Origin: Laetmonice hystrix
Taxonomy: Eukaryota
Reading direction: 5' to 3'
NCBI GenBank assembly: GCA_965235115.1
Contig: OZ249436.1
Location: 2,854,001-2,918,000 of the forward strand
DNA length: 64,000 bases
Below, in pieces: positions 21,101-61,920 of the stretch (its first letter is position 1; every line of letters starts with the position of its first letter). The notes under the pieces are model-generated. The model made no database searches. It was not told where the DNA came from and saw only the letters and a program-made list of their open reading frames with translations. A program made the position numbers and the translations under genes.

Positions 21101-24100
21101 ATATTCTCCCCTGTACTCCCACTGCCGTGGAGCCGTGACTGACCGCCTTCACTGTTATTGCAGGTATAGCCGGTAGAAAAGGTGACGTAGGAGCCACGGG
21201 ACCGGCGGGACCGCCTGGTGCACAGGGACCGCGGGGAGAGCGAGGACCGGTAGGCCGGCCTGGTAACCAGGGACCGAAGGGGGACCCTGGAAACGTGGGC
21301 CTACAGGGGCTCCCTGGCCCCCCAGGTATACCTGGCCGAGACGGCGACACCTTCGTCGGTAAGTGATTCCTCCGTCAGGTAAATGGGGCGGGTTCTTCAC
21401 CTTTTTATTCCTCATATATTGCTAATATTTAGTATTCGGCATTTAAGCCGAGTGGTATTTTCCTGAATAAAGATGATTAACAACAACAAAAATATATATG
21501 TGCATATGTTTCCTAGGGCCTTGTCCACTGAGCTTGCGGCCGTGCGATTTTCCTTGCGATGCGGCAGTCGCCCAGCCTAAAAGGCTCTGTGACTGCCGCA
21601 TCGCAAGGAAAATCGCACGGCCGCAAGCTCAGTGGACTTAAGCTACATATAGCGAGTTTCCAAGCGATGGTGCATCGCACCAACATCGCTTGGCTCAAAC
21701 GATCAAACGATATTAAGTTTTCCTACATCCCACCCATATCCTTTCTTGAATCTACATATGACCCTCCCCCAACATGGGAAAACTGGAGAGACATCAACAT
21801 TCAGTTTGAAATAACATCTTAACAATTTATTATTTCTAATTACCACCAGTAAACAAGACCTATATTCGATCCGCGGGACCACGGGACTGGGCGGTTGATT
21901 AAGTGGCACCCTCCCTCCATTTTTTCTACACACCATGGGCCGTATGGAACAGGCGTTCCATACGGCCCAACGTATGCCCCCCTCCCCTAGCACTGGTAGA
22001 TATTATGCGCATATATTAAGTGTCCCGATGGCACGTGCCCATGTCCGTAGGCTCAAAAATGTTAAAAGAGAACGCAGTTCAGAGAGGAACCCTCCCTAAC
22101 TCAGATCTACTCCTTGCAGACACTGACGAGTGTTCCCTGGGCCCTGGAAACATGTCCCTCCCTAACTCAGATCTTACTCCTTGCAGACACTGACGAGTGT
22201 TCCCTGGGCCCTGGAAACATGTCCCTCCCTAACTCAGATCTACTCCTTGCAGACACTGACGAGTGTTCCCTGGGCCCTGGAAACATGTCCCTCCCTAACT
22301 CAGATCTACTCCTTGCAGACACTGACGAGTGTTCCCTGGGCCTTGATAACTGCCAACAGTTGTGTGTGAACACACTGGCCGGGTTTCGGTGTGACTGTCG
22401 GCCGGGGTATGTGTTACAGTCAAACGGCAGGACATGCACAGGTAAGAACCTTTAGTGTACCATGGCATACCAGCATATCATACCAGGGATATATATTTAC
22501 GGAGGCTAGGCTTCCCATAACCTTACATACATCTCCTGGTTAAGGTCTTTACTTCTATTTACCGAATATTTGTGTGCATGAAAACGTAAAATTGTCACGT
22601 TTGGTAACCTTGATTTGACCTTGATGACGTCCCTGTATCAGAATGTCATAAACTGTCACGTTTGGTAACCTTGATTTGACCTTGATGACGTCATTGTATC
22701 AGAATGTCATAAACTGTCACGTTTGGTAACCTTAATTTGACCTTGATGACGTCACTGTATCAGAATGTCATAAACTGTCACGTTTGGTAACCTTGATTTG
22801 ACCTTGATGACGTCATTGTATCAGAATGTCATAAACTGTCACGTTTGGTAACCTTAATTTGACCTTGATGACGTCACTGTATCAGAATGTCATAAACTGT
22901 CACGTTTGGTAACCTTGATTTGACCTTGATGACGTCACAGATAACGACGAGTGTGCTGACCTTGATAACGGAGGATGTGAACACAACTGTACCAACAACC
23001 AAGGAAGTTATTTCTGTTCGTGTCGGACAGGTTATAGCCTCAGCAGTAACCGGCACACGTGTGAAGGTAATGATGGGTATGCTGGGTAAAACATTCCCAC
23101 GATACACAGGATCTGAGAGGAAATAGTCGTTTATTTATATAGGGGATCAAATAATATCGGGGGGCATGCCCCCTTGACCTCCCTCTCCCGACCTGAGTTG
23201 ATATCTGTCATTCCAAGATGACCTGAGTTGATATCCGTCATTCTAAGATGACGGGTTTCGATCTCAGAACTATTAGTAAACGCTGTTACATTTTCCTTTT
23301 GCTGTTACAAAAGGAGAAATAAGTTTGTTGACAAGTTTGATAAGCTAGCTTTGCCATGTGTGTACCTCGAACCTCCCCCAAGGTGCCAGTTTATGATGGA
23401 GAACAATCTGACCATTTGTTTTGTTTCAGATGTGAACGAATGTGACAACTTACCCGAATGTGACTTGTGTTTCAACAACCCGGGAAGTTATCGCTGTCTA
23501 CGGCTGGCTTATGGTAGTAAATCTCCCTCCGCCTCATCGCGAGCTGCCGGTAATAACATTGGCTTTATTCACATTAATTCTAGTATAATCACAATAAGTC
23601 AAGACCAGTTTGAGGCAAAGTCTGAGGCTGCATAGATACAAGGCTTTATTTCCTGGATACAGCATACCACATGATGACGAAAAGAATGATGAAGAAACTT
23701 TTAAAACCACAAAAAAATGATATTCTTAGTAAACTGAAGTAGTTGATAAAGACATAAAGTCATGTGGGACGAAAAAGTCCATCATTTTGTCACACGATAT
23801 GTACAGTTTACTGAGATATCAAACTGTTTACTGAGATATCAAACAGTTTACTGAGATATCAAACTGTTTACTGATATATCAAACTGTTTACTGAGATATC
23901 GAACTGTTTACTGAGATATCGAACTGTTTACTGAGATATCAAACAGTTTACTGAGATATCAAACTGTTTACTGAGATATCAAACTGTTTACTGAGATATC
24001 AAACTGTTTACTGAGATAATAAACTGTTTACTGAGATATCAAACTGTTTACTGAGATATCAAACAGTTTACTGAGATATCAAACTGTTTACTGAGATATC

Positions 24101-60522: not shown

Positions 60523-61920
60523 CTGCAACAGGTATTGGTACAATAGGTAAGACAGTTCACACCCACGCTTCGCCTGCAACAGGTATTGGTACACGAGGTA
60601 AGGCAGTTTACACCCACACTCTCCGCCTGCAACAGGTATTGGTACACTAGGTAAGGCAGTTCACACCCACACGCTTGGCCTGCAACAGGTATTGGTACAC
60701 TAGGTAAGGCAGTTCACACCCACACTCTCCGCCTGCAACAGGTATTGGTACACTAGGTAAGGCAGTTCACACCCACACTCTCCGCCTGCAACAGGTATTG
60801 GTACAATAGGTAAGACAGTTCACACCCACACGCTTCGCCTGCAACAGGTATTGGTACACTAGGTAAGGCAGTTCACAACCACACGCTTCGCCTGCAACAG
60901 GTATTGGTACACTAGGTAAGACAGTTCACACCCACACTCTCCGCCTGCAACAGGTATTGGTACACTAGGTAAGGCAGTTCACACCCACACTCTCCGCCTG
61001 CAACAGGTATTGGTACACTAGGTAAGGCAGTTCACACCCACACTCTCCGCCTGCAACAGGTATTGGTACACTAGGTAAGGCAGTTCACACCCACACTCTC
61101 CGCCTGCAACAGGTATTGGTACACTAGGTAAGGCAGTTCACACCCACACTCTCCGCCTGCAACAGGTATTGGTACACTAGGTAAGGCAGTTTACACCCAC
61201 ACTCTCCGCCTGCAACAGGTATTGGTACACTAGGTAAGGCAGTTTACACCCACACTCTCCGCCTGCAACAGGTATTGGTACACTAGGTAAGGCAGTTCAC
61301 ACCCACACTCTCCGCCTGCAACAGGTATTGGTACAATAGGTAAGACAGTTCACACCCACACGCTTCGCCTGCAACAGGTATTGGTACACTAGGTAAGGCA
61401 GTTCACACCCACACGCTTCGCCTGTAACAAGTATTGATACACTAGGTAAGGCAGTTCACACCCACACGCTTCGCCTGCAACAGGTATTGGTACACTAGGT
61501 AAGGCAGTTCACACCCACACGCCCCGCCTGCAACAAGTATTGGTACAATAGGTAAGGCAGTTCACACCCGCACTCTCCGCCTGCAACAGGTATTGGTACA
61601 CTAGGTAACCGTAAGGCAGCTCGCCTACAACAGGTATTGGTACACTAGGTAACCGTAAGGCAGCTCGCCTACAACAGGTATTGGTACACTAGGTAAGGCA
61701 GTTCACACCCACACTCTCCGCCTGCAACAGGTATTGGTACACTAGGTAAGACAGTTCACACCCACACTCTCCGCCTGCAACAGGTATTGGTACACTAGGT
61801 AAGACAGTTCACACCCACACGCTTCGCCTGCAACAGGTATTGGTACACTAGGTAAGGCAGTTCACACCCACACGCTTCGCCTGCAACAGGTATTGGTACA
61901 CTAGGTAAGGCAGTTCACAC
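60500..61920 (-). repeat. 53-bp minisatellite (~27 copies) spanning the 3' splice site of the last LONP1 exon
   Basis: Minus strand CCTTACCTAGTGTACCAATACCTGTTGCAG|GCGAAGCGTGTGGGTGTGAACTG. Confidence 0.97.

Follow-up and report, generated by a model that had tools for sequence, protein, structure and literature searches.

Minisatellites that copy splice sites in Laetmonice hystrix: probable near-neutral by-products of local duplication

Introduction

Three genes in a 64-kb stretch of the Laetmonice hystrix genome (C1:2854001-2918000, "the window" below; the assembly has 627 Mb in 35 contigs) raise the question of how an exon is joined correctly when its 3' splice site stands in a row of near-identical copies. 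The genes are one with collagen and calcium-binding EGF (cbEGF) exons, called gene 1 here, the gene for synaptotagmin-4 (Syt4), and that for the mitochondrial Lon protease (LONP1). Such stacks of identical decoys are a natural test of how the spliceosome chooses among equals: since the decoys are identical in site sequence, something other than that sequence must decide. An earlier note on this DNA had read the arrays as specific to acceptors, and had suggested that their copy number could tune productive mRNA. Here we find that donors are affected as often as acceptors. In our preferred reading, to which we assign a probability of roughly 0.78, the arrays are mirage minisatellites, that is, local duplications that are near-neutral by-products and are tolerated because the exon-proximal copy is chosen.

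Results

Three acceptors of the window stand in tandem arrays

Tandem Repeats Finder (TRF), run on the window, returned 92 rows that merge into 47-49 arrays and cover 32-33% of the sequence, as the earlier estimate of about a third had it. Three of these arrays are tandem copies of the end of an intron together with the initial 8-24 nt of the next exon, and a fourth lies against an acceptor. TRF and direct reading of the sequence placed all four where the earlier note had them:

22090..22342, plus strand: acceptor mirage array at the cbEGF1 exon of gene 1; 66/67-bp unit, 3.8 copies, 98% matches (TRF and sequence)
45524..45887, plus strand: acceptor mirage array at exon 3 of the synaptotagmin-4 gene; unit of ~55 bp, 7 acceptors (TRF, sequence and per-copy table)
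60500..61920, minus strand: acceptor mirage array at the last LONP1 exon; 53-bp unit, 27.2 copies (TRF, sequence and per-copy table)
22589..22938, plus strand: intronic minisatellite abutting the cbEGF2 acceptor; 61-bp unit, 5.7 copies (TRF and sequence)

In the first three, units of minisatellite size (66, ~55 and 53 bp) are repeated head to tail (3.8, 7 and 27 copies) and contain 4, 7 and 27 intact acceptors; conserved genes of this genome do carry long stacks of near-identical decoys. Next to the AG, each unit carries 24 (cbEGF1), 8-16 (Syt4) or 23 (LONP1) exon bases. Every decoy thus has a motif resembling a branch point, then a pyrimidine tract, an AG and the first exon bases, but lacks the remainder of the exon. 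The acceptors within the three arrays are spaced 44-68 nt apart, with a full branch point and tract in each copy. That the authentic site is always the most 3' copy, a point made before, is true; it is forced by geometry, because solely the last copy continues into the rest of the exon, and is no biological result.

The fourth array abuts the cbEGF2 acceptor without copying it. It ends in ...gacgtcac, 2 nt before the exon, and the AG (22939-22940) and the exon start lie outside the repeat; its units therefore do not combine the splice signal with exon bases, as those of a mirage do. They hold a tatcag of their own at 22640, 22701, 22762, 22823 and 22884.

Exon identities were taken from Pfam, from tblastn with synaptotagmin-4 homologues and from LONP1 homologues. 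The Pfam scan covered 148 stop-to-stop open reading frames (ORFs) on the plus strand between 15.6 and 48.3 kb, and the model of gene 1 is therefore partial. On this basis 8 acceptors and 6 donors of the window could be verified, fewer than the 13 and 11 counted earlier. Three of the acceptors are duplicated and one is abutted, and the six donors are all at least 100 nt away from any array.

Only the terminal copies give the conserved proteins

The exons of gene 1 that surround its array are the following (a slash marks a splice junction here and below):

21164..21358, plus strand: collagen-repeat exon (Pfam Collagen, E = 2.4e-11, match within 21139-21363; boundaries cag/GT...GTCG/gtaagt)
22319..22441, plus strand: cbEGF1 exon, phase 1-1 (Pfam EGF_CA, E = 2.8e-10; cag/ACACTGACGAGTGT, translated D-T-D-E-C)
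22941..23066, plus strand: cbEGF2 exon, phase 1-1 (Pfam EGF_CA and FXa_inhibition; cag/ATAACGACGAGTGT, translated D-N-D-E-C)

Each unit of the cbEGF1 array joins 31 nt of intron end (...ctccttgcag) to ACACTGACGAGTGTTCCCTGGGCC, whose 24 nt repeat the beginning of the cbEGF1 exon without a difference. Decoy acceptors before 22120, 22187 and 22253 precede the authentic one before 22319, and the 30 nt 5' of the AG are identical in three of the four copies. The donor of the collagen exon is in phase 1 and must join cbEGF1 across these decoys; all gene 1 junctions read from the sequence are in phase 1. A further calcium-binding EGF domain was found by Pfam in the ORF holding 23430-23549.

The Syt4 array has seven copies of ...cacag/ATCCACAG, spaced 53-68 nt, with decoys before 45532, 45600, 45655, 45708, 45769 and 45824 and the authentic acceptor before 45879:

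45879..46002, plus strand: Syt4 exon 3, start of C2B (tblastn with P0123, P0124, P0125, P0136 and P0141)

The earliest copy has a diverged intron part and a 16-nt exon match, longer than in the other copies; it is older and more diverged, as array edges usually are. Homologues of synaptotagmin-4 (the best named matches come from molluscs, one nemertean and annelids) align to three pieces of the window, namely the end of exon 2 (RHMK/gtacgt, 41440/41441), exon 3, and exon 4 from 48205; a C2 domain is recognized by Pfam in the ORF 40571-41482. Across the junction of exons 2 and 3 the homologues read K-IHSHGRG, and the conserved protein results from the last of the seven acceptors only. 

A perfect 16-nt palindrome, CACAGTTATAACTGTG, lies at the junction between successive Syt4 units (45607-45622 and equivalents) and is missing from the authentic copy. 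It could promote slippage, or form a small hairpin directly after each decoy AG; the overall fold of the array is not significant.

The LONP1 array is the longest of the three. The exons of LONP1 are ~72% identical to Branchiostoma and ~76% to Capitella and Lineus; the one at the array is the last:

60379..60522, minus strand: last coding exon of the mitochondrial Lon protease (translation, ORF 60382-60522; 525 homologues at E <= 0.001)

Its units end in ...cctgttgcag/GCGAAGCGTGTGGGTGTGAACTG, each copy carrying GCGAAGCGTGTGGGTGTGAACTG or a 3-nt variant of it. We counted 27 acceptors, 26 by pattern and the copy at 60679 by reading, with the AG kept in 27/27; these are 26 decoys and the authentic acceptor before 60522. 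Most copies differ from the authentic one at 0-2 positions over the 30 nt before the AG, and they contain a cttac motif ~25 nt upstream of the AG, which fits the animal branch-point consensus. The array includes two 44-bp and one 51-bp unit variants. Units with the authentic exon sequence GCGAAGCG and units with the variant GCGGAGAG are mixed, in blocks and singly, an irregular pattern of the kind expected from repeated unequal exchange.

The rest of LONP1 lies outside the window (C1:2962285-2974881), its penultimate exon ending in ...GGIKEKTIA/gtgagt. Because the Capitella protein continues as TIA/AKRVGV, a junction from the penultimate exon to 60522 is required, and the conserved protein is obtained from the terminal copy alone. 

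The intron between these two exons spans ~47.8 kb (C1:2914523-2962295), and the other LONP1 introns, with arrays discounted, have a few hundred bases. A 28-bp array of 30 copies begins ~55 nt past the donor of the penultimate exon. In a diverged LONP1 paralogue on another contig (C7:16576632-16580469) the last exon follows the penultimate one after just ~0.7 kb.

The units arose in place, and contigs of reads contain the Syt4 array

Searches of the 627-Mb assembly with the array units as DNA queries (a search that skips very common words) matched each unit to its own locus only. The arrays were thus made in place and are not inserted repeats, and an origin of the units from a dispersed repeat or transposon was rejected.

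The presence of an array in raw reads, which the earlier note had named as a check for artefacts, was examined for the Syt4 array region in Logan k-mer contigs of three runs (X1-X3) from one sample, possibly the assembly's own, which makes this a limited check. The contigs tile 44851-46281 across the array at a single-copy depth like that of the flanks, those of X1 with 0 differences, and in none of the X1-X3 contigs did we see a joint that skips the array. As to allele length, this one sample gave no skipping joint and one single-nucleotide polymorphism (SNP, at 45865), in k-mer contigs that cannot count copies. The difference is a C>T in the pyrimidine tract of the authentic exon 3 acceptor, found in contigs of X2 and X3 and not in X1, and probably marks two alleles of the animal sequenced.

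Donors are duplicated as often as acceptors

We searched the genome with the Pfam models EGF_CA, Ldl_recept_a and TSP_1, obtaining 30, 30 and 15 loci of ~3.1 kb. Hidden Markov models of our own, made from the central matches (30, 16 and 9 seeds), were then run on all ORFs of the loci and gave 97, 91 and 35 exons after removal of overlap duplicates. Edges less than 200 nt from a locus end, or where the match stopped short of the model end, were dropped, which left 186 5' edges (acceptors) and 179 3' edges (donors), 365 in all. Arrays were listed if they had a TRF period of at least 10, lay from 25 nt outside (20 nt for cbEGF) to 90 nt inside (70 nt for cbEGF) an edge and reached at least 40 nt outward, and the listed cases were classified by manual reading:

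Clear acceptor duplications: L057, L067, L053, L068 (21 bp), L071
Borderline acceptor duplications: L047, L068 (32 bp), L078
Clear donor duplications: L017, L019, L024, L033, L042, L068 (22 bp), L072, L073 (two arrays), L076
Borderline donor duplications: L026 (two), L083
Arrays merely near an edge, no duplication: L029, L026 (92 bp), L016, L020, L050, L071 (32 bp)

Arrays duplicate 5-8 of the 186 acceptors and 10-13 of the 179 donors. By family, the counts for acceptors and donors are 0/82 and 4-6/70 in the cbEGF sample, 4-6/72 and 2/78 in the LDLa sample, and 1-2/32 and 4-5/31 in the TSP1 sample. The largest sampled donor ladder (L019, C30:131294-132913) has a 41-bp unit in at least 36.8 copies and runs past the end of the locus; the largest sampled acceptor ladder (L053, C30:16496494-16497753) has 14 copies of a 90-bp unit that includes 44 nt of the LDLa exon.

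LONP1 itself was followed over 9.4 kb of gene body (C1:2960785-2970210; L001-L003, L005, L007 and L008), with the exons for residues 260-776. Three further acceptors are duplicated in this part, by arrays of 41 bp x 6, 77 bp x 10 and 80 bp x 27, and so is one donor, that of the exon for residues 643-717 (64 bp x 6). With the last exon included, LONP1 has five arrays, which affect four of the 12 acceptors and one of the 11 donors examined. Half of the 9.4-kb stretch is minisatellite, and four of its six arrays overlap an exon edge.

When the sample, LONP1 and the remaining sites of the window (2 of 7 acceptors and 0 of 6 donors duplicated) are taken together, the duplicated sites number 11-14 for acceptors (of 205) and likewise 11-14 for donors (of 196; Fisher p = 1.0). 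The supposed restriction to acceptors is thus lost. Even with the denominators used earlier, the split within the window (3/13 against 0/11) is not significant (Fisher p = 0.22), and its acceptor bias comes from small numbers; it may also be that ladders at acceptors catch the eye more readily.

Splice sites are duplicated at least as often as random positions

The earlier note had cautioned that some overlap between arrays and splice sites is expected by chance. As a null we counted an array as duplicating a site only if its founding unit spanned that site, using array-collapsed coordinates with one unit per array. Founding units make up 3.9% of array-collapsed positions in the window and 2.1% in the sampled loci (186,298 bp non-redundant, with 104 arrays on 18.8% of bases). 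For the window this predicts ~0.9 duplicated sites among 24, where 3 were seen. For the 365 sampled edges the expectation is 7.7; it rises to 9.2 when annotated exons are left out and to 11.0 on the assumption that exons make up 30%. The number observed is 15, counting clear cases only, to 21. Splice sites are therefore duplicated no less often than random positions, and their rate may be about double; this excess is borderline, and not robust to how cases are classified or to exons missing from the annotation. There is no sign among the sampled edges of strong selection against duplication of a splice site.

Consequences of decoy use

The decoy junctions read CAG/GCGAAG, CAG/ATCCAC and CAG/ACACTG, and no copy contains AG/GTRAGT. 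Recursive or stepwise splicing, which the earlier note had offered as one way through the stacks, is therefore excluded by the sequence, as no junction regenerates a donor. Clean-up of misspliced transcripts by nonsense-mediated decay (NMD), its other suggestion, cannot hold in general. Under the exon-junction rule a stop codon in the last exon is not an NMD target, and one upstream of a later junction is. With most LONP1 decoys the protein would lose its last 47 residues and gain about ten others before a TAG; these stops lie in the last exon, where the usual rule would not apply, and the nearest decoy, in the 51-nt unit, is an exception that stays in frame and adds 17 residues. The cbEGF1 decoys at 22187 and 22253 are likewise in frame (+44 and +22 residues), and that at 22120 shifts the frame. 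All six Syt4 decoys run into premature stops (per-copy table).

The two cbEGF1 decoy units of window positions 22187-22318 are each exactly 66 nt long and open in the frame of the exon, with one unpaired cysteine per repeat. Masking of the decoys by RNA structure was also considered, and rejected on fold z scores against 200 shuffles of +1.79 (LONP1) and -1.09 (Syt4).

The authentic copy is distinguished only by sequence 3' of the duplicated part, and selection by cross-exon signals is therefore the natural reading. On this point, choice through downstream signals, the earlier proposal agrees with the anatomy of the arrays.

Discussion

A likely origin and a possible mechanism of choice

From the anatomy of the arrays, their local origin, the symmetry between donors and acceptors across the genome and the observed frequency, we infer that the arrays are near-neutral by-products and no regulatory device, which we consider probable. 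Replication slippage or unequal exchange would have produced local tandem duplications in a minisatellite-rich genome, and at some loci the founding unit would by chance have straddled an intron/exon border. Each further copy at an acceptor would then be a complete but orphan 3' splice site without an exon body. The splicing machinery would take the copy nearest to the exon, which is the last one in an acceptor array and the first one in a donor array, since this copy alone would be continuous with the exon body, its enhancers and the opposite splice site (for the last LONP1 exon, the poly(A) signal). Commitment of the adjacent site would come from factors bound to the exon body and to the opposite site, and orphan copies would be ignored.

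Exon definition is the one standard model that picks the exon-proximal copy at both acceptor and donor arrays, and we give it about an even chance of being the mechanism of site choice. Scanning from the 5' side, as proposed for the human F7 gene (below), would suit the donor arrays and not the acceptor arrays.

Comparison with known systems

The kind of array described here is already known. Mirages were described in amphioxus, in the globin genes BflGb6 and BflGb9 (PMC3087553), in PGBD5, Adh and troponin C (PMC3902484), and in Adh3 (Canestro et al. 2002, through the citing papers PMC3087553 and PMC3902484). Duplication can affect 5' as well as 3' boundaries, haplotypes carry different numbers of copies, and splicing is regular as judged by reverse transcription PCR (PMC3087553); the same is reported for PGBD5, Adh and troponin C (PMC3902484). 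The arrays of L. hystrix share with them head-to-tail units of tens of bp from the intron/exon boundary, with AG or GT plus exon bases; a terminal copy continuous with the exon; more diverged copies at the edges; and the occurrence at both boundaries, donors being affected here at ten sampled arrays and in LONP1. They differ in their host, a spiralian and not a cephalochordate, and in size, with up to 27-37 copies as against 2-6 in the globin examples, and with five arrays in LONP1. Normal splicing and allelic length variation were demonstrated in amphioxus.

The donor arrays at exons of LONP1 and of the cbEGF, LDLa and TSP1 families have a direct analogue in the 37-bp variable number tandem repeat (VNTR) of human F7 intron 7. 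Its first unit spans the exon-intron border, and the identical pseudo-donors downstream are reported to be silent (Borensztajn et al. 2006, PMC1557585). Only donors are involved in that case, and the explanation given is scanning in the 5'-to-3' direction to the first site, whereas the arrays of the window need the last acceptor. The intron-gain model of Rogers, in which AGGT proto-splice sites are duplicated (discussed in PMC3087553; see also PMC4974935), is similar in that a tandem duplication multiplies splice signals within a gene. It differs in its outcome: in L. hystrix no intron is gained, as the pieces of exon in the decoys lack a usable donor and the copies make an existing intron longer. 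A literature search for VNTRs of the acceptor type found no closer parallels than the amphioxus mirages and the donor case of F7.

Competition of several AGs at one exon is also a feature of NAGNAG tandem acceptors, with AGs spaced 3 nt, and of recursive sites. Here, neighbouring AGs are 44-68 nt apart, each copy brings its own full branch point and tract, and there is no AG/GT.

Points against the by-product reading and alternative explanations

Several observations weigh against reading the arrays as tolerated by-products. The excess over random placement (observed/expected 1.4-2.7, with Poisson P from 0.14 to 0.0001 depending on the handling of borderline cases and on exon exclusion) may be real, and a purely neutral, position-blind origin does not predict one. 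The window and LONP1 together have 6 duplicated acceptors and 1 donor, in contrast to 5-8 and 10-13 in the module sample, a heterogeneity that is only borderline. The sample, three modular extracellular exon families and one housekeeping gene, is not an unbiased one. Exclusive use of the terminal copy is suggested indirectly, by the conservation of the proteins. The introns of this genome are short, and short introns usually favour intron definition, which would pick the wrong copy.

If the excess is taken at face value, exon-intron borders might be preferred sites for the birth or persistence of minisatellites, possibly because imprecise deletions that remove an array would also remove the splice site and be purged, or because of some feature of border sequence or transcription. 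The counts on the 365 edges and in the window point this way, as do the four of six arrays of the LONP1 stretch that overlap an exon edge and further arrays that end 4-20 nt from acceptors. With conservative classes and exons at 30%, however, the excess shrinks to 1.4-fold (P = 0.14), the null is set too low by exons of the loci that lack annotation, the borderline cases were classified manually, and only four gene families are involved; we regard a border preference as improbable. A regulatory ladder, in which decoys capture a share of splicing, the misspliced RNAs are degraded or give truncated protein, and copy number thereby tunes productive mRNA, fits the completeness of every decoy as a 3' splice-site module identical to the real one. 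By the exon-junction rule, all six Syt4 decoys and one of three cbEGF1 decoys lead to stops before a later junction and would be NMD targets, and mirage copy number varies in amphioxus (PMC3087553). But acceptors are no more often affected than donors, whose arrays would need a different story; the LONP1 stops escape classical NMD and two cbEGF1 decoys are in frame; the frequency is close to that of position-blind duplication; and five arrays in an essential housekeeping protease favour tolerance over tuning. Regulation is accordingly, to our judgement, still less probable than a border preference.

Creation or inflation of the arrays by the assembler is by far the least probable explanation. 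In its favour, the available runs come from one sample that may be the source of the assembly, and the read check was limited to the Syt4 array. That array was nevertheless reproduced by k-mer contigs with 0 differences in X1 at flank-like depth, the variant LONP1 units follow an irregular order, a like architecture recurs at about 20 other loci of the genome, and mirages are documented experimentally in amphioxus (PMC3087553 and PMC3902484).

Implications

What is new here is the symmetric rate of ~4-6%, the five arrays in one essential gene and the borderline excess over random placement. At least one spiralian genome is thus rich in a kind of array that was first named from lancelets: ~4-6% of the sampled exon edges are affected, donors and acceptors alike, and an essential protease gene tolerates five ladders, four at acceptors (with 6, 10, 27 and 27 copies) and one at a donor. 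Mirage arrays will mislead gene predictors and short-read junction callers. A stronger statement is doubtful, and we offer it tentatively: about 1 in 20 splice sites of this species (more than 1 in 5 in LONP1) would stand in a minisatellite of their own sequence, borders would be hit about twice as often as expected from position-blind duplication, and up to 27-37 identical decoys would regularly be resolved through cross-exon signals alone. If it is true, borders are preferred sites of minisatellite birth or retention and the species is a natural genome-wide experiment in splice-site choice, with copy number possibly modulating output at some loci.

Other features of the window

Three further stretches were noted. 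A CCT / TCCTGC simple repeat of ~570 bp (19620-20190) lies 5' of the collagen exon of gene 1, inside long open frames, and may be either proline-rich coding sequence or part of an intron. A run of ~17 G at 62000-62030 adjoins the LONP1 array, in a stretch without a recognised feature. Within Syt4 intron 3 (46372-48074), k-mer depth is in the thousands, as against ~35-70 in the flanks, and many contigs join across parts of it; this is presumably a high-copy dispersed repeat.

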